The notes under the pieces are model-generated. The model had not been told where the DNA came from. It saw only the letters and a program-made list of their open reading frames with translations, and ran no database searches. From the sequence record MT360681: 53,145 nt of DNA. The stretch is one strand, 5' to 3'. Below are positions 3,385-53,145 of the stretch, piece after piece (position 1 is the first letter of the stretch; each line of letters opens with the position of its first letter). This stretch comes from Shigella phage 2019SD1. The position numbers and the translations under genes were made by a program.

Positions 3385-4069
3385 TTAAGCCGATGGCGGC
3401 AAGCGGCAAGGCTTACGGTGTTGCAATTCGATCCCACTTCCAGACGACTTCGGCTGACGGTCGAATGATTTATGAATCTGGCAGCGGAATCAACGTAATG
3501 ACTGAGGGCGTGTTTGGATGCGTTACGGTCAGGTTTCTGACACTTCAGCTTATAATATTGATGGCGCTTGTGTTCTTGAGAATGCAGCAGGCAACCAGAA
3601 CAAAAACATTTTTGTTGGTGTTGCAGTCCAGCATGGCGGCGTTGATGAAGGCAAAACAAAGATTTTGGCTAAAGACGCTTCCGCGCCAGCGTTCGGCGCT
3701 ACAATCAAACTTTCTGATGATGGTCAGGTTGATACCGCGTCTGGCACTATCGAAACCAACTGGATCGCGACTGGTGATTTCACCGAGTTTCAAGACTTGA
3801 AGCTGGTAGAGGTTCAGGTGCAAAAGTTCCGGCAGTTTCAGCAGGTTAATAAATATGGCGCTCACTTGGCTAAAGACGCTTCCGCGCCAGCGTTCGGCGC
3901 TACAATCAAACTTTCTGATGATGGTCAGGTTGATACCGCGTCTGGCACTATCGAAACCAACTGGATCGCGACTGGTGATTTCACCGAGTTTCAAGACTTG
4001 AAGCTGGTAGAGGTTCAGGTGCAAAAGTTCCGGCAGTTTCAGCAGGTTAATAAATATGGCGCTCACTGA
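3369..4069 (+). CDS. Head-associated protein (hypothetical; possibly decoration protein); frame change near 3515 and tandem ~214-bp duplication at C-terminus
   Basis: Two overlapping ORFs 3369-3800 and 3518-4069 that read as one protein if a 1-bp indel is assumed; 3662-3876 repeated at 3877-4069. Confidence 0.3.
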
Positions 4070-15150: not shown

Positions 15151-18100
15151 GTGGCTGAAAATATGATAACGGGCAGTAAGGGTGGATCATCAAAACCTTA
15201 TGTTCCGAAAGAGATGGAAGATAACCTGATCTCAATCAACAAAATCAAAATCCTTCTTGCCGTTTCCGATGGCGAGTGCGATCCAAATTTTACACTTCGC
15301 GATCTGTATCTTGATGATGTTCCGGTAATTGCAGACGACGGAACTGTTAACTACCGTGGTGTGAAAGCTGAATTTCGACACGGAACACAAACGCAAGATT
15401 ACATCCGGGGTTTACTGACACATCAAGCGAAGACGCTGGCGCGTGACATTACGACGACAAATCCTTATGTAATTTCTGTAACCAACAAAACATTATCGGC
15501 TATCAGAATAAAAATTCTAATGCCAACAGGCATTAAGCAAGAGGATAACGGCGATCTTGTAGGTGTTAAGGTCACTTATGCTGTTGATATGGCTGTTGAC
15601 GGAGACTCTTACAAAGAAGTATTGATAGACACCATCGAAGGTAAAACGCGTTCCGGTTACGACAGAAGTCGAAGGATTGACCTTCCGGCATTTAATGATC
15701 GCGTATTGCTTAGGGTTAGAAGGGTTACGGCAGACAGCACATCATCTCGCGTTACTGATCTGATTAAGCTACAAAGTTACGCTGAGGTTATTGATGCAAA
15801 ATTCCGTTACCCTCTGACTGGTCTTGTATACGTTGAATTTGACAGTGAGTTGTTCCTAACCAGATCCACGCTGGCGCGTGACATTACGACGACAAATCCT
15901 TATGTAATTTCTGTAACCAACAAAACATTATCGGCTATCAGAATAAAAATTCTAATGCCAACAGGCATTAAGCAAGAGGATAACGGCGATCTTGTAGGTG
16001 TTAAGGTCACTTATGCTGTTGATATGGCTGTTGACGGAGACTCTTACAAAGAAGTATTGATAGACACCATCGAAGGTAAAACGCGTTCCGGTTACGACAG
16101 AAGTCGAAGGATTGACCTTCCGGCATTTAATGATCGCGTATTGCTTAGGGTTAGAAGGGTTACGGCAGACAGCACATCATCTCGCGTTACTGATCTGATT
16201 AAGCTACAAAGTTACGCTGAGGTTATTGATGCAAAATTCCGTTACCCTCTGACTGGTCTTGTATACGTTGAATTTGACAGTGAGTTGTTCCTAACCAGAT
16301 CCCGAGAGTATCACGGTTCATGGGATGGTACTTTCAAGAAAGCGTGGTCGAACAATCCGGCGTGGGTTCTTTATGACATTATCACAAACCAGCGATACGG
16401 ATTAGATCAGCGAGAACTTGGCGTGCAGGTTGACAAATGGAGTCTTTACGAAGCGGCGCAATACTGCGATCAGAAAGTGCCTGACGGAAAAGGCGGCACA
16501 GAGCCGCGTTATCTATGCGACGTTGTTATTCAAAGCCAGATTGAGGCTTATCAGCTTATTCGTGATATTTGCTCAATCTTCCGAGGCATGAGCTTTTGGA
16601 ATGGGGAGAGCCTGTCAATCGTCATTGATAAGCCGCGCGATCCGTCGTACATCTTCACCAATGACAACGTTGTTGATGGCGATTTTCAGTACACAACAGC
16701 AAGCGAAAAGAGCATGTACACGCAGTGCAACGTGACGTTCGACGACGAACAAAACATGTATCAACAGGACGTGGAGGGCGTATTCGACACTGAGGCAGCA
16801 TTGCGCTTTGGATACAATCCAACAAGCATAACAGCTATCGGATGTACACGCAGGAGTGAGGCTAATCGGCGCGGTAGATGGATACTAAAACCAACTTGCG
16901 CAGCACTACGGGATACTAAAACCAACTTGCGCAGCACTACGGTAAACTTTGCTACTGGACTGGAAGGCATGATCCCATCAATAGGTGATGTTATCGCGGT
17001 GTCAGATAACTTTTACAGCAGCAACCTGAAATTAAACCTTTCAGGGCGCGTGATGGAAGTTTCCGGCTTGCAGGTGTTCGTCCCGTTTAAGATTGACGCG
17101 CGACCGGTGATTTCATTATCATCAACAAGCCTGACGGAAAGCCAGTTAAGCGCACAATCTCAAAGGGTTGTGTCGTGGGATAAAGTACCTTACGCATCGC
17201 TGTATGAAATGCAATGGCGAAAAGGTGATGGCAACTGGCTGAATACACCACAGACCGCAAACAAAGAAATTGAGGTTGAAGGTATTTATTCAGGCAACTA
17301 CCGGCCAAACACTTCATTGTCGGATGCGGTTAAGTTAACTGGCGCGCCGGGCTCCCCACCTTACCAGTCAGCGAAGCTGTCACAATTCTTGACCGGGCGA
17401 TGTAGAACCGGAAGCGGAAACAGATCTCACCCTTACCGGCCAAACACTTCATTGTCGGATGCGGTTAAGTTAACTGGCGCGCCGGGCTCCCCACCTTACC
17501 AGTCAGCGAAGCTGTCACAATTCTTGACCGGGCGATGTAGAACCGGAAGCGGAAACAGATCTCACCCTTACCGGTTTGGCATTCGTGTTAAGTGGGGTAT
17601 GCCAGAAGGGAGCGGAGACACGGCATACATTGAGCTTCACCAGTCGCCAGATGGAACAGCGGAAAACTCAAGCCTGTTAACGCTGATACCATACCCACAA
17701 TATGAATATTGGCACGGTACGCTTCCGGCTGGTCATGTTGTATGGTATCGAATCAGAAGCGTGGACAGGATCGGCAATGTTTCCGGTTGGACGGATTTTG
17801 TTCGCGGCATGGCTTCAGATGATGTTGAGGCTGTTTTAGGCAATATTCTTGATAAGATTTTTGATACAGAAGCAGGAAAGGATCTGAAAGAGAATGCCAT
17901 TGATAGCGCAAACAAAATCAAGGATCAGGCGCAAAGCATCATTCAAAACGCATTGGCGAATGATGCAGACGTTAGGATCATGAGGAAGGAAAACGGAAAA
18001 CGCAAAGCCGAGTTTAGGCAATCAATCCAATTGATCGCAAGTGAAACTGAGGCGCGCGTTACCGCAATGACGCAACTCAAGGCTGAATTTGACGAGGAAA

Positions 18101-19291: not shown

Positions 19292-19563
19292 CTCGTAATA
19301 TTTAATAACACTCCACCACCTCCGTATTATTTAACCAGCTTCCAGAAGGTTAATGATTCAACTGGACGGATAACGGTAGGTAATTTTAACGGGCACGGTG
19401 GAAGGAGGATGAGATTTTATGGCAACTGTTACGAGATACTACCCGCTCAGGCTGGAAATCAGGGGATACTTGTTAACGATTCAACCAACTTTGCAGCGAT
19501 ACCGAATAACGCAAGGTTGATGAGCGCTGCATTTGTTGGAGGCATCCGTGTTAACGGTCAGGC

Positions 19564-19828
19564 TCAGTTGCCAGTCCGGTGTTCCTTTCGGAATGTGGGA
19601 TTACCACTCTTTGGTTTTGATTGATACCTTGCCGCTAAAGTTGCCCGGTCGTCATCGGATGAAAGACCTTTGAATCGCATATCGATTTCTCCAGCCGGAA
19701 CCTTCTTACCATCAACGAATAGCATCATACAAGATCCGTAAGTGTAAGTAACACAGTCGCCATTTTAAGATTCTGAGCACAACCAGTCATGGCAATGGCT
19801 GCAATCAAAACGGGGATTAACTTTTTCA
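19564..19828 (-). CDS. Small lipoprotein, candidate superinfection-exclusion protein (Cor/Llp-like); one internal frame change
   Basis: TAAGGAGA RBS, ATG at 19828 (minus), N-terminus MKKLIPVLIAAIAMTGC with lipobox; promoter motif copy 19886-19904 upstream; located next to tail tip gene. Confidence 0.45.
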
Positions 19829-19885
19829 TGTTGGTGTCTCCTTAGTTGTTGTTAGTTGTAACTATACATGATCTTACGGTAGGCG

Positions 19886-19904
19886 TTTAGCAAAAGTGCT
19901 ATTC
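19886..19904 (-). promoter_or_regulatory. Conserved promoter-like motif copy upstream of lipoprotein gene
   Basis: Minus-strand reading AATAGCACTTTTGCTAAAC followed ~20 nt later by TATAGT and RBS. Confidence 0.5.
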
Positions 19905-19929
19905 TGTTCTTTTGTTCCCCAGTGTTCTC

Positions 19930-20130
19930 AAATCTGCGGAGGCTTAAATTTAGCTCAAAAAGTGAACAGCAATAGAGCGCTATACATACATATAAATATA
20001 TATACATACATATAAATCAATAAGTTAGTAGTATATATATTTATATTTGTTTTTCTTGTTATCTATGTTTTGTGTGATTTTATGTGTCTGGTAATTTTTA
20101 TGTGGTTGTGTATTCGAGGCTAAAGATTAC
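19930..20130. promoter_or_regulatory. AT-rich repetitive intergenic region at strand switch (candidate promoter cluster or origin-like region)
   Basis: Repeats ATACATACATATAAATA and TTATGTG/GTGGTTGTGT units; no ORF. Confidence 0.3.
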
Positions 20131-20135
20131 GATGC

Positions 20136-21314
20136 GTGTCAGTGTTTGTGTTAACTAGCCAAACGGCGCTTGCTGCAAAACTGAACTCATTTGGCCTGAA
20201 AGGTACAACCGGAAAGACTTATCCAGATCTTATCAAAATGATGGTTGATTGCGGAGAAGACCTTAACGTTATGTGGTTGATTGAGATGATCGCAGAAAGT
20301 CAAGCGGGGCCGATGGGGTTAAGTTCTATATATCTATATCCGGCGCAAATAGAGGAACAAGAGAACAAAAAGACAACACTGATATTTATCAATCACTTAC
20401 ACGTAAGTTTTGTTATCCAAGTTGGTGAGAACGTTGTTGGAACAGAAAAACAAAATAACTATAATAAGTTTATGGCGTACACCAGCGAAGAAATGAGCAA
20501 CGAGCTTTATCACGATCCAGAAGCGTGGACGGCTGATTATGTTAGCGGCTCAAGCCCGGCAGAGATTTACAGCACATGCCCGGCAGCGTGGAAGTTCAAG
20601 CCGCGCGACGATAAGAGCAAAGCGCTAGTTTTCGGTACGCAGTCGCATACCAACTTTGAAAGCAAGGAGCTTTTCGAAAAACCTATCGACGTGCGCCAGC
20701 GACAGAAGACTTTAAGGATCCGTGGCAATGCGCCGGTTCTTGAATCCATACCTGAACATAACGCATGTATGAATAGCAAGACAGCACAACGTGAATTATC
20801 GCTATTCGGTGAAATTAACGGCGTAAAAGTCAAAGTTCGATGCGATCACGTTGACGTAACAAAGAACGTCAACGCAACGCTGATTGATGGTTACGATGAA
20901 AAAGGCCAGCCGATTTGCAGAGATATTATTTATCCAGAGGCCATTGTGATCACAGACTACAAAACCACAATGAGCGCTAATCCGGCTGAGTTTATGCGCC
21001 CGGCTTACAATCACGGCTATTATTTAAAAATGGCGTTGCAATGTGATTTATTCAGGAAAGCATATCCAGAAGAAAAGCGACCTATAGTTGTGCGCCTGTT
21101 AGCGCAAGAGAAGAAAGAGCCTTATTTGCCGTTGGCTTTCCGCATGAACAACGAGCAATTGAAGATCGGGCGCATTCAGTACATGAGCGTGATTAACCAG
21201 TTTGCCATGTGCCAGCAACATGACGTTTGGCCTTCTTATTCAAACGGTGAGCCGGAGGTTTGCCTTGACACTCCTGATTGGGTGCGCCGCCAGTTTAAGC
21301 AATATCTTATTTAA
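20136..21314 (+). CDS. PD-(D/E)xK family nuclease, putative recombination exonuclease (start uncertain, possibly near 20460)
   Basis: Motifs ..VRCDHVDV.. and ..IVITDYKTT.. suggest a PD-(D/E)xK catalytic core; adjacent to Erf-like and SSB genes. Confidence 0.3.
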   Translation: MSVFVLTSQTALAAKLNSFGLKGTTGKTYPDLIKMMVDCGEDLNVMWLIEMIAESQAGPMGLSSIYLYPAQIEEQENKKTTLIFINHLHVSFVIQVGENVVGTEKQNNYNKFMAYTSEEMSNELYHDPEAWTADYVSGSSPAEIYSTCPAAWKFKPRDDKSKALVFGTQSHTNFESKELFEKPIDVRQRQKTLRIRGNAPVLESIPEHNACMNSKTAQRELSLFGEINGVKVKVRCDHVDVTKNVNATLIDGYDEKGQPICRDIIYPEAIVITDYKTTMSANPAEFMRPAYNHGYYLKMALQCDLFRKAYPEEKRPIVVRLLAQEKKEPYLPLAFRMNNEQLKIGRIQYMSVINQFAMCQQHDVWPSYSNGEPEVCLDTPDWVRRQFKQYLI

Positions 21315-21395
21315 TCGGCACAAATAGCTAAACAAATGAAAAATGCGGTGTTATAATTCACCGCATAAGTTAACAACAAGCGTGAGGAAATAAAC

Positions 21396-21674
21396 ATGGA
21401 AAACAAACAAGTGTCAGATGTGGCAGTTCATATTAACAATTTTGCAACTGGCATGGCTATGTTGCTTCGTGACTTTGTGGCGCCACTTGATCCAACAGAA
21501 GGCGAAGAAGAAATGGAGTACATCAGAAAAGTAATGGATGCAGTCGATAATGTCGTACTTATTGCAACAATGAGCGAAGACAACGATGAAGCAATCAAGG
21601 CGGTAAAAGAAAGTTCTGATCGCATGATGGAAAATCTGATTAAATTACACACCAAAGAAGAAACAAAGCACTAA
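21396..21674 (+). CDS. Hypothetical acidic protein
   Basis: GTGAGGAAA RBS plus ATG; 92-aa ORF. Confidence 0.4.
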   Translation: MENKQVSDVAVHINNFATGMAMLLRDFVAPLDPTEGEEEMEYIRKVMDAVDNVVLIATMSEDNDEAIKAVKESSDRMMENLIKLHTKEETKH

Positions 21675-21747
21675 CAGCAATAAGGCGGCGAAAGCCGCCA
21701 TTAATCACGGGAATTAATCTGCCGTACTTGATGCAATCACTCCAGCA

Positions 21748-22338
21748 TTGAAACTATCAGAGCAATTCGACAAGGTTTTACCAGCACTGCATAAGGCGCG
21801 TAGTTTGTTTGTAAAGGTGAAAAGGATAAGCAAAACACGCACCTCAAAACCGTTACGCAACGCTAATGATAACGAGCTAATGTTGATGCAGGACATGATT
21901 GAAAGCGAACAACCAAACAGAATTAAGGTTGAGACAACAGTTCTTCATGTTTCCGGTCAGTGGGTAAAATTCTATGCTGAATTACCAATCGTTAAAAACG
22001 ATCCTCAAGGTGTAGGATCTGCATTCACATACGCGCGTCGTTATGCAGCAGCAGCAGCATTTGGCTTAAGCCGGGCAGACGATGACGCGCAGATTGCCGT
22101 TAAATCTGCGAACGACTGGAAACGTGACATTGAGAAATGCGAAAGCGTGAACGAATTACAAGAAGTGCTTAAGTCAGCATGGAAGGCAAGCGATCCGGCA
22201 AGCAAGCAGGTAATTAAAGAGCATTACGAAAAACGCAAGGCAGAGCTTGAGATCGGAAAAGCACGAGGATTTAATCCAGCGCAACCAAAGCAAAATCTTG
22301 CCTCGCCAGAAGTTGACACAAAAACGACGAGCAAGTAA
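21748..22338 (+). CDS. Single-strand annealing protein, Erf-like
   Basis: Segment ..[20 protein letters not shown].. resembles the conserved core of ERF family proteins; N-terminal part may be frame-disrupted. Confidence 0.45.
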
Positions 22339-22372
22339 AATCACAAAGTATCACTGATTTTGAATAATTGAC

Positions 22373-22395
22373 ATGGGGCGATTGCGCCCTTTTTA
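22373..22395 (+). terminator. Rho-independent terminator
   Basis: GGGGCG-ATTG-CGCCC followed by TTTTT. Confidence 0.5.
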
Positions 22396-22409
22396 CAGGA
22401 GAATGAATA

Positions 22410-22934
22410 ATGCATATCATTACTGGTGAGATCCGAAAAGAGCCGCGAGTAAAGCAAATGCCTAACGGCAGCACACTTTATGTGGTTGAACTTTCAGAGC
22501 GATACAAAGATAAAGATGGAAACTGGCAATATACAAACTACAGTTTCTTTTTAATGCGAAAACAGAAGGTCTTAAGGGTTGGTATGATGAGGCGTTCCGG
22601 TTGGCAAGGTTATTTCTGTATCTTGCATATCATTACTGGTGAGATCCGAAAAGAGCCGCGAGTAAAGCAAATGCCTAACGGCAGCACACTTTATGTGGTT
22701 GAACTTTCAGAGCGATACAAAGATAAAGATGGAAACTGGCAATATACAAACTACAGTTTCTTTTTAATGCGAAAACAGAAGGTCTTAAGGGTTGGTATGA
22801 TGAGGCGTTCCGGTTGGCAAGGTTATTTCTGTATCTTGTGACACTCTGCGCATTGAAACGCGAGAACACAACGGAAAGATGTATGACAAAGCAATCAACC
22901 TCCTATGGACTTTGACGACGATATTCCTTTCTGA
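22410..22934 (+). CDS. ssb: Single-stranded DNA-binding protein; exact tandem 213-bp duplication of N-terminal OB-fold segment and frame disruption before the C-terminal tail
   Basis: CAGGAGAATGAATA plus ATG; N-terminal ..TGEIRKEPRVKQMPNGSTLYVVELSERYKDKDGNWQYT.. OB-fold-like; a downstream frame ends ..MDFDDDIPF-stop, the hallmark SSB acidic tail. Confidence 0.55.
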
Positions 22935-22940
22935 TCAACA

Positions 22941-22963
22941 AAGGGGCATTACGCCCCTTTTTC
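22941..22963. terminator. Bidirectional hairpin terminator between convergent genes
   Basis: GGGGC-ATTAC-GCCCC with T-run on plus strand and A-run upstream. Confidence 0.5.
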
Positions 22964-23221
22964 ACTTTCAGCCATCCCAAGCACGGCAATAACCTTAACA
23001 GCAATTCGCTTTGCAAGTTCAGTTTGATGAGCGTTAAGTTTTCCAGTGGTCATTATTGACAGCATTCCGCTCATACTTCCAAGTCCGTTAAAATCTGAAA
23101 TTGCCGATTTCATAATTGATATTGGTGAATGACCTTCGTCAGCTATTGTGTGCGCTCTCTCTGACAGGTCTTTAACCACCTGATCTATTCCTTCACTTTT
23201 CGTCATTTTCTTTTCCTTCAT
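22949..23221 (-). CDS. Hypothetical protein
   Basis: 90-aa minus-strand ORF. Confidence 0.3.
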   Translation of the reverse strand: MKEKKMTKSEGIDQVVKDLSERAHTIADEGHSPISIMKSAISDFNGLGSMSGMLSIMTTGKLNAHQTELAKRIAVKVIAVLGMAESEKGA

Positions 23222-23843
23222 GAGTTGATTGCTGTTCTGGCATTACAGGCCATGGGCTAATTGATTCCCTTTCTGCTACTGGCTTTTCAGGTTCAATTCC
23301 TAAAAACTTTCCTACAAACTCACCAACAAAATTTGAGCTATCGCTTACATAAACATGCATCCTGTCCAGATCTGCAACAGTAACGCTATTTGGTGCAATC
23401 ATGATCCTCTGCTGGTGAAAACCGATATACATCACATTGGCTGGACGTTCAAGAGTCCCCATATTTGGCGCAATTACGCCCATTATCCAACAATAATGAA
23501 TATTGCCATCAAGAGGCTCACATCCGGCGTTAAGCCAGTTTACTTTCTGGTGTGGGAATGCCATTGATGAATCAGTAGCGTCACGCCGTAACGACCATTT
23601 AACGCCGCCAATCTCAATAATTTGTTTAGGCCTCATTCCGTTGAATTGAGTCACGCCAGCGCCATTTTGATTAATGTTTTGCATTACTACTCGCGGCAAA
23701 TGCACGCTCGGTAACAGGTAACGCAACGCGAGATCTGATTCGCCAACAGTTTGCTGATTCTCAGGCTGTTTTGATTTGCGATATGAAAGCTCAGTTGCAG
23801 GAAGCGCGTTTTGCTCTTTCTCAGGCAAACCAGACCGCTGCAC
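23193..23843 (-). CDS. Hypothetical protein (216 aa)
   Basis: Minus-strand ORF; upstream end runs into perfect palindrome. Confidence 0.3.
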   Translation of the reverse strand: MQRSGLPEKEQNALPATELSYRKSKQPENQQTVGESDLALRYLLPSVHLPRVVMQNINQNGAGVTQFNGMRPKQIIEIGGVKWSLRRDATDSSMAFPHQKVNWLNAGCEPLDGNIHYCWIMGVIAPNMGTLERPANVMYIGFHQQRIMIAPNSVTVADLDRMHVYVSDSSNFVGEFVGKFLGIEPEKPVAERESISPWPVMPEQQSTHEGKENDEK

Positions 23844-24003
23844 TGAATTGCAAAATCAACCGTGTCGAGCAATTGGTAAACTTCAAGTTGCCTACTCCTC
23901 AGACTCCGCCTACTGGCTGTTGCGCAACAGCCAGTAGGCGGAGTCTGAGGAGTAGGCAACTTGAAGTTTACCAATTGCTCGACACGGTTGATTTTGCAAT
24001 TCA
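23844..24003. repeat. Perfect 160-bp palindrome (two 80-bp inverted arms, centre at 23923/23924)
   Basis: Right arm is exact reverse complement of left arm. Confidence 0.85.
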
Positions 24004-25156: not shown

Positions 25157-25337
25157 AAAACAACGACGCAGGATGGTCGCCAATCGTTTGTGGAGGTAGT
25201 CAGTCGCAATGGGGTTATGCTCTAAAATCAGCTTTCGGAACTATTGCTAATAACCAAGCTTGGCCTGATACAGCTATACACCACTCATTCGCCCCGGTGC
25301 AACAATCTTTTTCATTGATGCACCGTTTCAAGCGGCT

Positions 25338-27494
25338 GTGATTGGTGATAACGCTCATAACAGGATGTTTTATTTTCTCATACCGGGACGTCGGGTTGGT
25401 CCTTTTGATAGTGTTGGTGCTAATACGATTATTTACTCGCCAGACGGATCTTATAGGTTGGTTATCAGAGATGACGGATTACTAGTTTATCAGAAAGGTG
25501 ACGGAACTGAAACCAAGCCATTTGAAATTGCGACTGGTGGGACTGGGGCAACTGATGCAGCAGGTGCTCGCAATAATCTTGGGCTTGGCAGCTATACACC
25601 ACTCATTCGCCCCGGTGCAACAATCTTTTTCATTGATGCACCGTTTCAAGCGGCTGTGATTGGTGATAACGCTCATAACAGGATGTTTTATTTTCTCATA
25701 CCGGGACGTCGGGTTGGTCCTTTTGATAGTGTTGGTGCTAATACGATTATTTACTCGCCAGACGGATCTTATAGGTTGGTTATCAGAGATGACGGATTAC
25801 TAGTTTATCAGAAAGGTGACGGAACTGAAACCAAGCCATTTGAAATTGCGACTGGTGGGACTGGGGCAACTGATGCAGCAGGTGCTCGCAATAATCTTGG
25901 GCTTGGGACTGGGCAAGACGTTCAATTTAAGAGCATTACGGCTACAGACGGCGATATTCTAGTTCCGCAAACTCACGTTGTAGGATGTAAAACTAATACT
26001 GGCGGTAACAAAAATATCTATCTGACGAACTTACCGGAGAATCAACTTCAGGTGGGTGGGACTGGCGCTCAATCTGCAAATAACGCCGCTGAAACTGCAA
26101 AAACGGCGCTGTTACGGCGCGAAATGAGGCTGAGGAATTTGCTAAAAGCCTTAATGCTGAAAATCTACCATGTATTGCTGGGCGACGCTCAAGGTTATAT
26201 CACTGGATACGATACGAAATGGCGAGAGCAATTAACACTCATTCGCCCCGGTGCAACAATCTTTTTCATTGATGCACCGTTTCAAGCGGCTGTGATCAGT
26301 GAAGTTATCAGCGATACACAAATCCGCGCTATCACAACTGGCGGCGCTGAAATTGGGCGGAGCAACTACATTATTTTGCTGCATGACTCAATCACTGTTG
26401 ATGGCCCGGCGCAAGATGTTGCGGAAACTCTGCGTTACTATCAAAGCAAAGAAACTCAGATCGAGGAAGCTATTGAATTTTTCAAAAACTTTGATCTAAA
26501 ACAGTTGCAAGATCTGGCTAATCAGGTTAAAGGTGATGCAGAGAAAACAGCCAATGATCGTGCTGCTACTGAACAACTGAAAAACGACACTCAACATATA
26601 AAGGATTCTGCTGTTGCTGAAACAAACCAGATTAAAGCAGACACTAACGCAATCAAGGCGCAAACACAACAGATTAAAGATTCTGCGATAACGGAAGTTA
26701 ATTCCGCACGCGATCAAGGTGTTTTAGCTGTAAACCAGACTAAAGATCAGGCTGTTTCAGAAATGAATCAGATAAAGGGTGATGTTTCGAATCTGAAAAC
26801 GAAGCTATTTCAGCAAGGGATTCAGCCCAGCAATACATGGCAATGGACGCTCAAGGTTATATCACTGGATACGATACGAAATGGCGAGAGCAATATCAGT
26901 GAAGTTATCAGCGATACACAAATCCGCGCTATCACAACTGGCGGCGCTGAAATTGGGCGGAGCAACTACATTATTTTGCTGCATGACTCAATCACTGTTG
27001 ATGGCCCGGCGCAAGATGTTGCGGAAACTCTGCGTTACTATCAAAGCAAAGAAACTCAGATCGAGGAAGCTATTGAATTTTTCAAAAACTTTGATCTAAA
27101 ACAGTTGCAAGATCTGGCTAATCAGGTTAAAGGTGATGCAGAGAAAACAGCCAATGATCGTGCTGCTACTGAACAACTGAAAAACGACACTCAACATATA
27201 AAGGATTCTGCTGTTGCTGAAACAAACCAGATTAAAGCAGACACTAACGCAATCAAGGCGCAAACACAACAGATTAAAGATTCTGCGATAACGGAAGTTA
27301 ATTCCGCACGCGATCAAGGTGTTTTAGCTGTAAACCAGACTAAAGATCAGGCTGTTTCAGAAATGAATCAGATAAAGGGTGATGTTTCGAATCTGAAAAC
27401 GAAGCTATTTCAGCAAGGGATTCAGCCCAGCAATACACATGCGTTTTCTCCCGTGTTGCATGTTAATGTCAATGCAGATAATAGCATTTGCTAA
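25338..27494 (+). CDS. Long tail fibre protein; 318-bp tandem duplication (25271-25588, 25589-25906), 600-bp tandem duplication (26297-26838 and 26897-27438) and frame disruption near 26100
   Basis: N-terminal ..GGTGATDAAGARNNLGLG.. motif common to phage tail fibres; long coiled-coil-like repeats rich in A/T/N/Q/K. Confidence 0.6.
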   Translation: MIGDNAHNRMFYFLIPGRRVGPFDSVGANTIIYSPDGSYRLVIRDDGLLVYQKGDGTETKPFEIATGGTGATDAAGARNNLGLGSYTPLIRPGATIFFIDAPFQAAVIGDNAHNRMFYFLIPGRRVGPFDSVGANTIIYSPDGSYRLVIRDDGLLVYQKGDGTETKPFEIATGGTGATDAAGARNNLGLGTGQDVQFKSITATDGDILVPQTHVVGCKTNTGGNKNIYLTNLPENQLQVGGTGAQSANNAAETAKTALLRREMRLRNLLKALMLKIYHVLLGDAQGYITGYDTKWREQLTLIRPGATIFFIDAPFQAAVISEVISDTQIRAITTGGAEIGRSNYIILLHDSITVDGPAQDVAETLRYYQSKETQIEEAIEFFKNFDLKQLQDLANQVKGDAEKTANDRAATEQLKNDTQHIKDSAVAETNQIKADTNAIKAQTQQIKDSAITEVNSARDQGVLAVNQTKDQAVSEMNQIKGDVSNLKTKLFQQGIQPSNTWQWTLKVISLDTIRNGESNISEVISDTQIRAITTGGAEIGRSNYIILLHDSITVDGPAQDVAETLRYYQSKETQIEEAIEFFKNFDLKQLQDLANQVKGDAEKTANDRAATEQLKNDTQHIKDSAVAETNQIKADTNAIKAQTQQIKDSAITEVNSARDQGVLAVNQTKDQAVSEMNQIKGDVSNLKTKLFQQGIQPSNTHAFSPVLHVNVNADNSIC

Positions 27495-27516: not shown

Positions 27517-27535
27517 GCGAAAGTAGCAGTGACAT

Positions 27536-28470
27536 GATCCAACCAACTCCGGTATCATTACCGCACACGTTGCAGATCGCACCGCCATCGCCTTTTTATC
27601 GCCAAGTTTATCCGTCCATCTGAAGCGATCCTTTCCGCCGCAGTGGGGCTTTTCATTGATGAAGAAGGTAAACAGTCTTTTCTAGCAAAGGACTACACGC
27701 GCGGGTCGGTTGTGAGAACAGGAAACACCGATAAGACTATCTATCTTTGCGTTGACTGGATTGATGCGCAACATATTCACCTTGCAACTGGTCAAGAGGT
27801 TTGGGCCTGCTTCGATGCAACTAATATTGAGATTGTAGCTTACAGGTATAAAGGCAACAGAAGAATGCGAGTTGTCTGTAAGAGTACAGACCGTGACGCT
27901 ATCATAGCTGCCGAGGAAAGAGGTCTTGAAATTATGATGCCGATTAATGATAATTACAGGCAAGGGATAGACAGGAAGGTTTACAAACCTGAATCTCTTC
28001 TCAAGCTAACCGGAGAACCTTACAGCGAAGTGATCAATATTTTGGGCCGTTTTCTTGGGAAAGTTCCACAGGACTATAGAATCAAGGCAAATAAGCGAGT
28101 ATCTCGTGATTCTGGTTATTCGTTTGGGAAACAGGCAAGTCATGAATGCTGCGAGCGCGTTATGTCAAAAACATTAAAATTTGATCGCACGCCGTTAAGC
28201 ACATATGAAGGAATATACCCGCCTGAAGATGGTTATTATGAATGCGGCGTAAAAGATGGTCGATACATTCACGCGTTACCATGTTACCGGTGCATTCAGA
28301 TGAAATTGATGATGAAATGTGCAATGTGCTTTTCATTGATGAAGAAGGTAAACAGTCTTTTCCCCCACTGCGGCGGAAAGGATCGCTTCAGATGGACGGA
28401 TAAACTTGGCGATAAAAAGGCGATGGCGGTGCGATCTGCAACGTGTGCGGTAATGATACCGGAGTTGGTT
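27536..28470. repeat. Segment bounded by ~115-bp perfect inverted repeats (27536-27650 and 28354-28470) plus 34-bp direct repeats (27648-27682, 28320-28353)
   Basis: Exact reverse-complement identity of the two outer arms. Confidence 0.8.
27643..28319 (+). CDS. Hypothetical protein encoded inside the inverted-repeat-flanked segment
   Basis: Open frame across the internal segment; GTG start; no recognisable motifs. Confidence 0.25.
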
Positions 28471-28622
28471 GGATCACAAGATTGATGCTTGCCGTTAAAA
28501 ACTTCATTTGGAAGACCGCAAATACTTTGTAGCGCCTCACGCCACAATCCTTGCATATATGGGAGTACATCTTCCTTTTGATAAACCATAAAGTTTTCGT
28601 TATTCATATACACCTCAAACAA
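28354..28622 (-). CDS. Hypothetical protein, N-terminal part only (frame ends inside inverted repeat)
   Basis: Minus-strand start at 28622; protein-like N-terminus MFEVYMNNENFMVYQKEDVLPYMQGLWREALQ.. Confidence 0.25.
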
Positions 28623-33806: not shown

Positions 33807-34997
33807 ATGAGATGGACAATCACCACTCGCGACAAAGAACAGCTAGAAGCATTAATGCAGGCCGCTATGGATGCATTTAGCGAAGAAGTTCCGCGACTTG
33901 ATCCGCAACCGGAATCACAAAAGGATTATAGCGAGACGTTATCACTGTATCCGATCTTTGATATGCACCGGGCGCAATGGCGCATAAGCATGAATGCGGC
34001 GAGAACTGGGATACAGCAACAGCAGAGCGCGAATAATTTCATTGATTATTCCATCCAGTGCGCGCCGGATAGCGAAAAGGCTGTTTTGCTGATTGGTGGT
34101 GACATGCTGCATAGTGACGGCACGGAAGCGGTGACACCTGCAAGCGGTCACGTATTGGATCAAGATAGTCGATACGCAAAACTTGTTTATGTTGCCATCC
34201 GGTCAGTGCGTCGAGCAATAGCAAAGCTGTTATCAAAACATAAAACGAGATGGACAATCACCACTCGCGACAAAGAACAGCTAGAAGCATTAATGCAGGC
34301 CGCTATGGATGCATTTAGCGAAGAAGTTCCGCGACTTGATCCGCAACCGGAATCACAAAAGGATTATAGCGAGACGTTATCACTGTATCCGATCTTTGAT
34401 ATGCACCGGGCGCAATGGCGCATAAGCATGAATGCGGCGAGAACTGGGATACAGCAACAGCAGAGCGCGAATAATTTCATTGATTATTCCATCCAGTGCG
34501 CGCCGGATAGCGAAAAGGCTGTTTTGCTGATTGGTGGTGACATGCTGCATAGTGACGGCACGGAAGCGGTGACACCTGCAAGCGGTCACGTATTGGATCA
34601 AGATAGTCGATACGCAAAACTTGTTTATGTTGCCATCCGGTCAGTGCGTCGAGCAATAGCAAAGCTGTTATCAAAACATAAAACGATCTGGTTGCGCGCA
34701 GCAATGGCGGCAGCATATGAGAATGAGCCGCGAGTGCATGTTGATGTTTCTCCGCGAGTAGTTCATCACACGCAATATGGCAAAACATTCCCGCATACCA
34801 TCATCTGGTTGCGCGCAGCAATGGCGGCAGCATATGAGAATGAGCCGCGAGTGCATGTTGATGTTTCTCCGCGAGTAGTTCATCACACGCAATATGGCAA
34901 AACATTCCCGCATACCATCATGGGCACACTATCCGCAAACCTGAAACATTGGCGGCAAAGATGCATACGCTGCGCGCGAGTACATAGCACTATATAA
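33807..34997 (+). CDS. Hypothetical protein; exact tandem 438-bp duplication (33810-34247, 34248-34685) and 117-bp tandem duplication (34686-34802, 34803-34919)
   Basis: 396-aa ORF composed largely of repeated units. Confidence 0.3.
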   Translation: MRWTITTRDKEQLEALMQAAMDAFSEEVPRLDPQPESQKDYSETLSLYPIFDMHRAQWRISMNAARTGIQQQQSANNFIDYSIQCAPDSEKAVLLIGGDMLHSDGTEAVTPASGHVLDQDSRYAKLVYVAIRSVRRAIAKLLSKHKTRWTITTRDKEQLEALMQAAMDAFSEEVPRLDPQPESQKDYSETLSLYPIFDMHRAQWRISMNAARTGIQQQQSANNFIDYSIQCAPDSEKAVLLIGGDMLHSDGTEAVTPASGHVLDQDSRYAKLVYVAIRSVRRAIAKLLSKHKTIWLRAAMAAAYENEPRVHVDVSPRVVHHTQYGKTFPHTIIWLRAAMAAAYENEPRVHVDVSPRVVHHTQYGKTFPHTIMGTLSANLKHWRQRCIRCARVHSTI

Positions 34998-36996: not shown

Positions 36997-37500
36997 CTTC
37001 ATCGCTCATTTCTCCGATCCGTAAAACATCCCTAACCCATTCGTTTTGCATACCTTCCGGGCTGTAAAGTTCAAACGAGAAAGGTCGATTTGCGGATCCT
37101 TTCTTACACCAGAACTTTCCATCAACTCCATCTGCTGCATTCAGGAACTGAACTGAGCGAGCAATGTTGCGCGCCAACTTTCCAACAACATCAACATCAT
37201 TGCCAAGAGAAATTACAGGGTAGCGATCATTTCCGTTATTAACATCATTAACCTCACCCCAAAAGCTGGACGATTGACGGTATCCGTTTGCCTGAATGGA
37301 CACGCGCACCGGAGACAATCCTTGTGCATCAGCTAATTCGATAATTTGTTTTGGTGTTAGTTTGTTGGTTTCAAACGAAAAATTCGAGTTGATGGAAAGT
37401 TCTGGTGTAAGAAAGGATCCGCAAATCGACCTTTCTCGTTTGAACTTTACAGCCCGGAAGGTATGCAAAACGAATGGGTTAGGGATGTTTTACGGATCGG
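36997..37500. repeat. Fold-back structure: ~95-bp perfect inverted repeats (36997-37090 and 37405-37500) flanking a ~315-bp segment that codes on the minus strand
   Basis: 37405-37500 is the exact reverse complement of 36997-37090; best reading frame of the enclosed segment is on the minus strand whereas the continuing gene is on the plus strand. Confidence 0.8.
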
Positions 37501-38747
37501 AGAAACTTGGACGCTTCACGGTTGAGTATCACGGAACGGATCAGCCGACCGCTCTTTATGTTGTCACAAGCCAGCCTCCTTCAACTGGTAAATCTGCCGT
37601 TAACAGCCCGGCACTTGCTCCAATGGTTGCAGAAGTAGAAAGAATTAACGATCAGCGAAAGAAGGAAAGAAAAAGATTCAGGCAAAGTTGGCAGGTCTTG
37701 CAAAAGAGACTTGGACGCTTCACGGTTGAGTATCACGGAACGGATCAGCCGACCGCTCTTTATGTTGTCACAAGCCAGCCTCCTTCAACTGGTAAATCTG
37801 CCGTTAACAGCCCGGCACTTGCTCCAATGGTTGCAGAAGTAGAAAGAATTAACGATCAGCGAAAGAAGGAAAGAAAAAGATTCAGGCAAAGTTGGCAGGT
37901 CTTGCAAAAGAGAAGCAAAACATACATTAGCGCCGCCAACGCTTCTGGCTATGCTGGTGATGATGCTGAAATGGGTAAACTAATCGAGATCATCACTCGA
38001 CACGGCAAGGCTAATAAGGGGATCTTGAATGTGCGCGCCATATATGAGGCTGCACGAAAAGTTAAGCCGTTTGTTGGTCAGGCTGGCGTAATGAAGCGTA
38101 TGGAAACGCAACTGCTGCCGATGCTTGAAGAAAGAAATTATATTTGTGTGATTAATGGCGTTGTTTTTGTAAATCCAACATTGCTGGGGAGTGAATCAAA
38201 CATCCAGCTTAAGATCAGCAAATCAGCAATGCGAGTTCTTAACATGGCTCGTCAGGAGATGGAACCGCACCTTGCTGATGGAGGAAAGTATTCGCATACA
38301 ATGCTGCGCGGCGCGCTTGGCAAAATGGATAAGCAGGTGATCAGGATTGCTTCAGTTTTGCACACTATCCGCAACTGGTTTAATCGGCGGATACCCTCAA
38401 AAGTCGAAAGAGATCTGAAAGCATGGGATCACGGTCATGTTTCTATAGCTCGTGCAAACGCTGACAACAATATGAGTTTTAAAGCTCTTGGCTGTATGGC
38501 GGTAATTGCCCGTGATGAAACAATCAATGCCATCATGGATGCAGGATCGCGCGGTATCGGTGTGAGTGAGCGTTATTTGCTTGTGCGTGAGGAATCATTT
38601 TGTGACATCGTTTTCCCTGTGTCCGACACCACGCCGGAAGGACTTGCAAGAATCAACAATCGCCGGGGTAACTTTGCTGTGATTTCAGACGAGGCAACGA
38701 GTATTAACAGCCTTATTGATGATAACTCCTTTTTGATGCGGCAATAA
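37500..38747 (+). CDS. Putative replication protein with P-loop-like motif (primase/helicase-type, tentative); tandem 204-bp duplication (37506-37709, 37710-37913); native N-terminus probably lies in the inverted segment upstream
   Basis: ..VVTSQPPSTGKSAV.. Walker A-like; long ORF in replication region. Confidence 0.3.
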   Translation, partial: EKLGRFTVEYHGTDQPTALYVVTSQPPSTGKSAVNSPALAPMVAEVERINDQRKKERKRFRQSWQVLQKRLGRFTVEYHGTDQPTALYVVTSQPPSTGKSAVNSPALAPMVAEVERINDQRKKERKRFRQSWQVLQKRSKTYISAANASGYAGDDAEMGKLIEIITRHGKANKGILNVRAIYEAARKVKPFVGQAGVMKRMETQLLPMLEERNYICVINGVVFVNPTLLGSESNIQLKISKSAMRVLNMARQEMEPHLADGGKYSHTMLRGALGKMDKQVIRIASVLHTIRNWFNRRIPSKVERDLKAWDHGHVSIARANADNNMSFKALGCMAVIARDETINAIMDAGSRGIGVSERYLLVREESFCDIVFPVSDTTPEGLARINNRRGNFAVISDEATSINSLIDDNSFLMRQ

Positions 38748-43631: not shown

Positions 43632-44774
43632 TTGTGGTGCTTAAGCGTGGATAACATCAAGTATCCGATCACGTTCCACACGGTTGGTAACTCAACTATT
43701 CGATTCACATCTCGCGACAATGGCGTTTATAGCGACGGTCAGAAATCAGAGTTGAAAGTTGATTTCTTTGTCAATGGTCACAACAAATTCAATCCGCACA
43801 ACGAAAAAGATAAGGTGTACTACGTGGAAGATATTACAAAACACTTGTTTGGCGAAACTCCATTCGGCGGCGGGAAGACGTCAATTCAACAAATCATTGA
43901 CGATCAGATCCGCAAGGCAGCCGTTGAAATGAAAGCGCCCGGAGGCTGGCGTATTGATAAGGGCGCCTTTACCATTCAAGAAATCGTAACGCAGGGCGCG
44001 ATTGAAGACATGCCGCTTGGCGCTTCAATCATCGGCATCAAAGACGACAACGGCGACTGGCAGGATGTTTCATTCCTGTTAAGCAGATCGAAGTACACGA
44101 CGACCTGTTTTGCCTCCCGGCGCATCATGGCAGCTACAAGGGCAAAGCCTTTGCCGCAGAGCTTGACATCAAGCGCGGAACGATTGTTAAGTGGAAGGCA
44201 AAAGTGTAAAGATAACATCAAGTATCCGATCACGTTCCACACGGTTGGTAACTCAACTATTCGATTCACATCTCGCGACAATGGCGTTTATAGCGACGGT
44301 CAGAAATCAGAGTTGAAAGTTGATTTCTTTGTCAATGGTCACAACAAATTCAATCCGCACAACGAAAAAGATAAGGTGTACTACGTGGAAGATATTACAA
44401 AACACTTGTTTGGCGAAACTCCATTCGGCGGCGGGAAGACGTCAATTCAACAAATCATTGACGATCAGATCCGCAAGGCAGCCGTTGAAATGAAAGCGCC
44501 CGGAGGCTGGCGTATTGATAAGGGCGCCTTTACCATTCAAGAAATCGTAACGCAGGGCGCGATTGAAGACATGCCGCTTGGCGCTTCAATCATCGGCATC
44601 AAAGACGACAACGGCGACTGGCAGGATGTTTCATTCCTGTTAAGCAGATCGAAGTACACGACGACCTGTTTTGCCTCCCGGCGCATCATGGCAGCTACAA
44701 GGGCAAAGCCTTTGCCGCAGAGCTTGACATCAAGCGCGGAACGATTGTTAAGTGGAAGGCAAAAGTGTAAATAG
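43632..44774 (+). CDS. Hypothetical early protein; exact tandem ~561-bp duplication (43650-44210, 44211-44771); C-terminus frame-disrupted
   Basis: 380-aa ORF consisting of two identical 187-aa units. Confidence 0.35.
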   Translation: MWCLSVDNIKYPITFHTVGNSTIRFTSRDNGVYSDGQKSELKVDFFVNGHNKFNPHNEKDKVYYVEDITKHLFGETPFGGGKTSIQQIIDDQIRKAAVEMKAPGGWRIDKGAFTIQEIVTQGAIEDMPLGASIIGIKDDNGDWQDVSFLLSRSKYTTTCFASRRIMAATRAKPLPQSLTSSAERLLSGRQKCKDNIKYPITFHTVGNSTIRFTSRDNGVYSDGQKSELKVDFFVNGHNKFNPHNEKDKVYYVEDITKHLFGETPFGGGKTSIQQIIDDQIRKAAVEMKAPGGWRIDKGAFTIQEIVTQGAIEDMPLGASIIGIKDDNGDWQDVSFLLSRSKYTTTCFASRRIMAATRAKPLPQSLTSSAERLLSGRQKCK

Positions 44775-53034: not shown

Positions 53035-53145
53035 ATGGTTTCCCGGCTTTACTGTTGACGGCGTGGCAGATGAGGCGGCATTCCGTTCCTTGTGGGATGA
53101 GAAGCGACTCAATGCAAAATTATTGATGCGCTTTGTTGGTCGCGT
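53035..53145 (+). CDS. Portal protein N-terminal segment (continues at position 179 after wrap)
   Basis: ATG at 53035 after AGGAAAG-like RBS and terminase terminator; downstream sequence identical to 179-255 apart from one A-run length difference; the frame needs a 1-bp correction. Confidence 0.35.

Follow-up and report, generated by a model that had tools for sequence, protein, structure and literature searches.

The recombination module of Shigella phage 2019SD1: a known T1-like gene set whose interruptions are most likely errors of the deposited sequence

The RecE/RecT system of the E. coli Rac prophage and the Exo/Beta/Gam system of phage lambda follow a similar logic, in which a 5'-3' exonuclease is combined with a single-strand annealing protein. 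The Erf protein of phage P22 is the founder of the ERF family of annealing proteins; it contains the PF04404 domain, forms rings and has been proposed to circularise the terminally redundant phage genome, and in all three respects it is comparable to the Erf of the phages considered here. The P22 module carries abc1/abc2, which are directed against RecBCD, and arf, and contains no RecE-like nuclease. The closest described systems are those of Hanrivervirus and other T1-like phages, i.e., pSf-1 (gp85-gp88), JakobBernoulli (bas07_0027-0030) and SECphi27 (Gp75-Gp78). Phage T1 itself encodes an exodeoxyribonuclease VIII, a putative recombination protein and a 140-amino acid (aa) protein, and lacks a small 92-aa gene present in Hanrivervirus. 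Gp77 of SECphi27 was shown to be an Erf-like protein that forms a ring of 24 subunits, is encoded next to a putative single-stranded DNA-binding protein (SSB) and is essential, since a deletion phage grows only with complementation; it is also the trigger around which the RNase RAZR of a defence system assembles, and the escape substitutions S19R, S31R and D41Y are located in or beside its loop 19-41 (PMC13017515). Here we describe the corresponding module of Shigella phage 2019SD1 (record MT360681), which occupies positions 20136-22934 of the 53,145-nucleotide (nt) stretch of DNA that was analysed, hereafter the window, which is the whole of that record.

We conclude that this region is very probably the standard recombination module (RecE-like nuclease, Erf annealing protein and SSB) of a T1-like virulent phage (Drexlerviridae, Hanrivervirus), and that the interruptions of its three genes are most likely sequencing or assembly errors. 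The nuclease-Erf-SSB module is real, ordinary, and already known and annotated, and the oddities of its 2019SD1 copy are most likely a property of the record and not of the phage. A megablast search placed the whole window in Hanrivervirus (Drexlerviridae, Tempevirinae), with an identity of about 94-95% to pSf-1, slyngel, JakobBernoulli, SFP17 and PGN590. All five phages annotate exonuclease VIII, a small hypothetical protein, an Erf-like protein and an SSB at this place, which agrees with the recombination cassette that the original prediction, made from the letters of the sequence, had proposed. The profile searches for the ERF, SSB and PDDEXK families that had been suggested as a check gave significant matches for all three, and every motif quoted in support of the cassette was found on the + strand at or near its predicted position. 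The window copy and the Hanrivervirus/T1-like modules have the same gene order and families and are about 92-97% identical at the nucleotide level in colinear blocks; they differ in that rearrangements, a duplication and frameshifts are found in the window copy, whose nuclease gene lacks a promoter, a ribosome-binding site and an ATG.

Four open reading frames (ORFs) are present on the + strand of the region: 20136-21314 (392 aa), 21396-21674 (92 aa), 21748-22338 (196 aa, with a TTG start) and 22410-22841 (143 aa). The cassette had been described as three adjacent plus-strand genes; the three named families stand, but there are four genes, and it is the overlooked 92-aa gene alone that is intact in the 2019SD1 record, none of the nuclease, erf and ssb genes being so. 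At 20136, the predicted start of the module, an ORF does begin but is chimeric: it opens inside misplaced nuclease pieces, and the gene proper starts from about 20463-20472. The lesions were placed by comparison with JakobBernoulli (L002), and the features of the region are as follows.

20114-20138, + strand: misplaced 25-nt piece of the nuclease gene, encoding EAKDYDAC; equals JakobBernoulli L002 3772-3796 and sits in the upstream intergenic region
20152-20325, + strand: misplaced piece of the nuclease gene of about 174 nt, corresponding to about aa 90-147 of relatives (TSQTALAAKL...AESQA); equals L002 ~3598-3768
20463-20720, + strand: N-terminal part of the nuclease, aa 2-87 of relatives, with the ATG of Met5 at 20472 and GTQSHTNFE at 20634-20660
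20721-21314, + strand: C-terminal nuclease core, RecE-like PD-(D/E)xK
20838-20858, + strand: Asp of nuclease motif II, RCDHVDV
20949-20969, + strand: D-x-K of nuclease motif III, ITDYKTT
21096-21125, + strand: Q-E of the nuclease, LLAQEKKEPY
21396-21674, + strand: intact ORF of the acidic 92-aa protein, with its own promoter-like site at 21329-21357 and hairpins at 21343-21366 and 21684-21699
21720-21747, + strand: misplaced 28-nt piece of erf, equal to L002 4919-4946, directly before the start codon
21748-22367, + strand: erf gene, with the native stop at 22365-22367 and the 11-residue Erf motif of the original prediction at 22015-22047
22410-22934, + strand: remnant of the SSB gene, with the N-terminus at 22410-22550 (frame 3)
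22899-22934, + strand: SSB tail PPMDFDDDIPF and stop (MDFDDDIPF at 22905-22931, stop at 22932-22934)
22940-22960: terminator-like GC-rich hairpin followed by a T run, which closes the + strand module opposite convergent - strand genes

The damage to the three genes is of a kind that extends over the entire record. Basecallers of the R9.4 era made systematic errors at Dcm-methylated CCWGG sites and compressed homopolymers. The window contains no CCWGG (Dcm) site, as compared to 116 in 50 kb of pSf-1, and none of the 53 pSf-1 sites whose left flank could be located in the window is preserved: CCGG is found at 20 of them and other altered forms, such as CCCGG, at the remainder. A Dcm-like methyltransferase is annotated in one relative. 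Runs of six or more A or T residues are likewise rare (6 in the window versus 77 in pSf-1). Within the module, CCAGG sites account for two of the frameshifts and homopolymer runs for four. The comparison of the window with pSf-1 breaks into 117 BLAST blocks; perfect duplications, both tandem and dispersed, occur together with local inversions, transpositions and deletions and affect structural and replication genes alike, and lesions of the same kinds as those in the module hit the tail, portal and primase genes. The 92-aa ORF and the 143-aa "SSB" ORF are identical to 2019SD1 proteins whose names carry the NCBI flag UNVERIFIED_ASMBLY. A synthetic or model-generated origin of the sequence, which had been considered, was discarded in view of these two exact matches. 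The phage was sequenced with nanopore R9.4, Albacore and Canu only, and a 73.6-kb scaffold was cut to 53.15 kb (PMC8590004; MT360681); it was, at the same time, isolated as a plaque-former (PMC8590004). Since a plaque-forming phage cannot carry so much damage, including that to Erf, whose close homologue is essential, and since the damage is genome-wide, with CCWGG sites absent and homopolymers short, the lesions of nuclease, erf and ssb are most likely artefacts of sequencing or assembly.

If the module of 2019SD1 is restored according to its relatives, its expected mode of action can be outlined from what is known about the families. The RecE-like PD-(D/E)xK enzyme would resect ends of double-stranded DNA in the 5'-3' direction and leave 3' single-stranded tails, to which the ring-forming Erf would bind and anneal complementary strands. 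The small SSB would coat single-stranded DNA and, through a tail identical to that of the host protein, would probably engage the host binding partners of the SSB tail. With a terminally redundant genome packaged by the headful mechanism, the module would be expected to circularise incoming DNA via the terminal repeats and to support recombination-dependent replication, in line with the proposal made for P22 Erf. Ring formation and essentiality were shown experimentally for the close homologue Gp77 of SECphi27; annealing by the Erf of the module is predicted by analogy. As compared to RecE/RecT and lambda Red, the annealing protein of the module belongs to the ERF family and not to RecT/Redbeta, and no Gam is present. 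Nor was any Abc or Gam homologue found in the window module. Protection against host RecBCD, which had been ascribed to the cassette, is unsupported, no Gam/Abc-type protein having been detected in searches of Pfam, NCBIfam, PHROG, PADLOC and with Foldseek.

It is also conceivable that the three genes are neighbours and not one unit, the SSB serving mainly in replication and the nuclease in degradation of host DNA or in end processing and not as a partner of Erf. A hairpin of its own after each gene and promoter-like sites inside the module would suit such an arrangement, as would the lineage-specific gene inserted between nuclease and erf, and SSBs are general replication factors; yet the order nuclease-Erf-SSB is common to T1, Hanrivervirus and metagenomic relatives, and pairs of an exonuclease with an annealing protein, such as lambda Exo/Beta and RecE/RecT, are the norm in single-strand annealing systems of phages. 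The mutations by which phage Stevie_ev116 escapes the defence system Retron-Vpa2, described in a preprint, were mapped both to the exonuclease and to the ERF-domain recombinase of one operon, which also argues for a common function. We consider independent action of the genes unlikely and treat them as a single recombination module.

In the nuclease gene, the segment corresponding to L002 3272-3332 (about 60 nt, at 20462/20463), which in relatives contains a near-consensus promoter-like sequence TTGACT-17-TAAAAT, the ribosome-binding site and the ATG, is missing. At the junction 20720/20721, 205 nt (L002 3592-3796, about aa 88-156) are missing as well, and two pieces of this missing stretch are found upstream, one of which (20152-20325) lies in frame within the chimeric ORF, whose GTG start is at 20136. 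In addition, there are 1-nt deletions at 20677 (in an A6 run) and 20735 (at a CCAGG site). The authors of the 2019SD1 description reported no more than 66% identity between the nuclease (ORF23) and its relatives (PMC8590004). In spite of the damage the family can be recognised: the 392-aa window ORF matches PF12684 (DUF3799, PDDEXK-like) with E 1.6e-15 and 57.9 bits at a cut-off of 26, as compared to 62.1 bits for an intact relative, and phrog_412 "exonuclease VIII" with E 1.5e-77. Among 28 aligned homologues (311-345 aa), almost no variation is seen in the N-terminal G-T-x-S-H, in the R-x-D of VRCDHVDV, in the D-Y-K of ITDYKTT and in the Q-E pair; in the numbering of P0081, which is the closest homologue retrieved (70% identical), the nearly invariant R202, D204, D217, Y218 and K219 correspond to RCDHVDV and ITDYKTT of the window. 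The choice of these two motifs as the basis of the original nuclease assignment was thus a sound one. A catalytic Asp in "ICRD", as suggested by a pairwise HMMER alignment to RecE, was rejected: the two acidic motifs are separated in the 28 homologues by a variable insertion of 0-35 residues, and the "ICRD" residue lies inside this insertion, which many homologues lack.

The fold was examined on an AlphaFold (AF2) model of P0081, and not of the window protein (pLDDT 93.6, pTM 0.85). In a Foldseek search of the PDB, the best match of the model was E. coli RecE (3h4r) with E 1.3e-9 and a target TM of 0.72, followed by the nuclease domains of AdnAB, AddAB, Cas4-family proteins, Exo5 and MGME1 with E of 1e-5 to 1e-3. 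The C-terminal domain of RecE is thus the closest fold to the module nuclease, and the D...D-x-K catalytic motif is common to both, whereas the 354-aa module nuclease is devoid of the long N-terminal region of RecE. Two results speak against a close relationship with RecE. The RecE equivalog NF007259 was not reached, with 24.9 bits for the window ORF and 37.7 bits for a relative versus a cut-off of 1269 bits, only the last ~100 residues being aligned, and a phmmer comparison of the nuclease to 3h4r gave E 0.057, which makes it distant from the RecE nuclease domain. Because the motifs are conserved and RecE is the best fold match, yet the score is far below the equivalog cut-off, the nuclease is, as judged from sequence and model, RecE-like in its predicted fold and active site and not a RecE orthologue.

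A related question is whether the enzyme is a PD-(D/E)xK nuclease of the Cas4/AddB/Exo5 type, specific for single-stranded DNA or for particular structures, rather than a processive double-strand exonuclease of the RecE type. RecE leads the Cas4/AdnAB group in the fold search by four orders of magnitude, even though AdnAB, AddAB, Cas4-family proteins, Exo5 and MGME1 do appear there. The helical insert of about 70 residues (about aa 88-156) that is absent from RecE and the marginal sequence similarity to RecE could point in the Cas4 direction, while DUF3799 and PHROG 412 place the nuclease among "exonuclease VIII" proteins, and the gene of an annealing protein adjoins. A Cas4/AddB/Exo5-type activity appears very doubtful on this evidence, and the RecE-like assignment is retained.

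The Erf-like assignment holds. The 196-aa window ORF matches PF04404 ERF above the threshold (E 2.1e-14, 54.2 bits, cut-off 25; 88.5 bits for an intact relative), and phrog_155 "Erf-like ssDNA annealing protein" (E 4.6e-27) and phrog_2324, likewise Erf-like, agree. A complete ERF annealing domain (profile positions 1-153) is not present in the window ORF, of which only 39-149 align, while relatives align over 5-149 and are complete; the incompleteness is attributed to a fault of the record. The start codon is TTG in the window and ATG in relatives, and the gene contains 1-nt deletions at 21822, 21844 and 22320, the last in an A6 run, as well as a 34-nt gap at 21865. The first two deletions and the gap together garble aa 26-51 of Erf, and the deletion at 22320 throws the last 15 codons (22323-22364, then stop) out of frame.

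The Erf of JakobBernoulli matches PDB entries 9y6u/9y9c "Gp77" over its full length with E 2e-116, and even the garbled window ORF is 70% identical to SECphi27 Gp77. Gp77 is thus a close homologue of the Erf of the relatives, likewise encoded beside a putative SSB, and differs from the window protein where the window residues for aa 26-51 are missing or out of frame. This garbled part (21822-21865) overlaps the Gp77 loop 19-41 and the next helix, which together contact RAZR, and in Gp77 it carries S31R and D41Y. Located at the surface sensed by RAZR, the alteration could be taken for a product of escape evolution. A natural change that evades RAZR-like sensing was considered as its explanation and rejected, because the missing 28 nt reappear ahead of the start codon, the frameshifts on either side are of the type that base calling typically produces, and the same damage is found genome-wide.

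The ssb gene is spread over three frames, with the OB-like N-terminus in frame 3, the middle part in frames 2 and 1 and the DDDIPF tail in frame 3 again, so that there is no single ORF. It contains a perfect tandem duplication of 213 nt, the exactly repeated stretch 22411-22625 recurring at 22624-22838, and both copies have lost one nucleotide in a T6 run (22548/22761) and another at a CCAGG site (22599/22812). Owing to a deletion of 139 nt at 22884/22885, the end of the fold is missing together with the Gln/Gly-rich linker. The window ORF matches phrog_44 "SSB" with E 1e-19 (E 4.5e-26 for an intact relative); its score against PF00436 is 29.2 bits at a cut-off of 26, but no one stretch reaches it alone, and the duplication makes the N-terminus count twice. 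A search of the PDB with a profile of the SSB family gave matches to E. coli-type SSBs exclusively (E 8e-9), the tail contributing much of the score. The last residues PPMDFDDDIPF are identical in E. coli SSB, to which the Gln/Gly/Pro-rich linker (in relatives) and a beta-1-like N-terminal motif are also common, and because of the identical tail the phage protein can probably use the host partners of SSB. The phage protein is, on the other hand, shorter (150 aa), and its OB domain has diverged below the Pfam and TIGRFAM thresholds in intact relatives.

Several results show that support for the OB domain of the SSB is weak at the sequence level. The intact 150-aa relative has no Pfam match at E <= 0.01, the scores against TIGR00621 (25.9-29.8 bits) are below the cut-off of 53.95, and an hhalign comparison of the family profile with the OB domain of E. 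coli SSB alone gave E 0.003 with a probability of 10%. We accept the SSB assignment on the basis of PHROG 44, the tail and a colinear match to E. coli-type SSBs over the full length, with the OB fold being putative. The original SSB call, which had been made from an OB-fold-like N-terminus and the terminal DDDIPF, is therefore borne out as regards the tail and the family match, while the OB-fold-like N-terminus is weakly supported and is not joined to the tail in one ORF.

There is one group of observations that is difficult to reconcile with simple sequencing error. In the window, the period of every tandem duplication (19/19; 60 to 438 nt) is divisible by 3, and so is the spacing of 32/40 exact repeat pairs. 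The sums of neighbouring lesions in the module are multiples of 3 as well: -1 -205 -1 = -207 in the nuclease gene, -1 -1 -34 = -36 in erf, where a further 1-nt deletion near the 3' end falls outside the sum, and -1 -1 +213 -139 = +72 in ssb. The pattern of the repeats is far from chance and is not accounted for by any known assembler behaviour that we could name. Together with the sums, it means that the scrambling goes beyond nanopore base-calling error alone and suggests a codon-aware processing step. The deposited sequence has no intact nuclease, erf or ssb ORF, and the sums -207, -36 and +72 could mimic selection for an open frame, but the notion that the lesions are real and that 2019SD1, with a decayed module of three pseudogenes, depends on host recombination is hardly credible, given the same kinds of lesions in the tail, portal and primase genes of a plaque-forming phage and elsewhere in the genome, the base-calling signature of 0 of about 116 expected CCWGG sites and few long homopolymers, the UNVERIFIED_ASMBLY flag and the essentiality of the Erf homologue in SECphi27.

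With the lesions read as artefacts of the record, the biological gain from this locus is small: the T1-like nuclease-Erf-SSB module is annotated in hundreds of genomes, and for a close Erf homologue both a structure and a role as an immune trigger have been described. What follows is mainly a practical warning. The record MT360681, which is also represented by RefSeq proteins, is corrupted throughout, and the odd ORFs that have entered protein databases from it, such as an internally repeated "SSB" of 143 aa and a nuclease at 66% identity, should not be taken as natural variants.

The 92-aa protein embedded in the module is acidic (20 D+E versus 10 K+R, pI 4.6) and 97% identical to its JakobBernoulli counterpart. 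Homologues were found mainly on contigs of about 48-53 kb, as well as on many shorter fragments, and form two subgroups, of 92 and 96 aa. In Hanrivervirus and in a lineage with 60% identity, the gene is conserved and flanked by those of the nuclease and Erf; T1 does not have it. In the 96-aa lineage the flanking genes are again those of a DUF3799 nuclease and an ERF protein, and the gene of a 138-aa protein comes next. The promoter-like site and the flanking hairpins correspond to the layout of a moron-like insertion. The AF2 model of the protein, which is moderately confident (pLDDT 70), shows a three-helix bundle, for which Foldseek gave no match in the PDB below E 0.97, and a Gam/Abc-type or other known function was sought in Pfam, NCBIfam and PADLOC and nothing was found. 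The label "tail length tape measure protein", given by PHROG 11265 and RefSeq, was rejected as implausible for a cytoplasmic-looking, helical protein of 92 aa encoded inside a DNA-metabolism module. The same label appears to be spread through many Drexlerviridae records. The protein might be a functional accessory of the module, either an inhibitor of a host nuclease (e.g., RecBCD), comparable to Gam of lambda and Abc of P22, or an adaptor acting between nuclease and Erf ring or a regulator of the two, a proposal that we regard as quite improbable. If it were true, the 92-aa protein would be the anti-RecBCD element that the original prediction had presumed.

As regards possible RNA elements, smaller hairpins are located 3' of the first two genes of the module, and an Rfam scan of 19500-23400 returned no RNA family at E <= 1.

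Elsewhere in the window, perfect duplications, tandem or dispersed, number in the dozens and are seen, for example, at 15433-16302, 25271-25906, 33809-34686 and 43650-44771, and inversions or inverted duplications within genes at 17304-17572, 27533-28476, 37009-37505 and 23844-24003; as compared to pSf-1, two inverted copies are present in the tail tip gene, and primase pieces occur in mixed orientation. Positions 175-229, at the start of the window, recur as 53065-53119 close to its end, and the start is found once more at 765-920 (21-229 being involved), which is consistent with wrap-around of a circularly permuted assembly and further duplication. Finally, 18 to 21 records labelled "Campylobacter phage", with Campylobacter jejuni given as the host, share DNA with positions 1-50000 of the window; the host is unexpected, and these records may reflect contamination or mislabelling.

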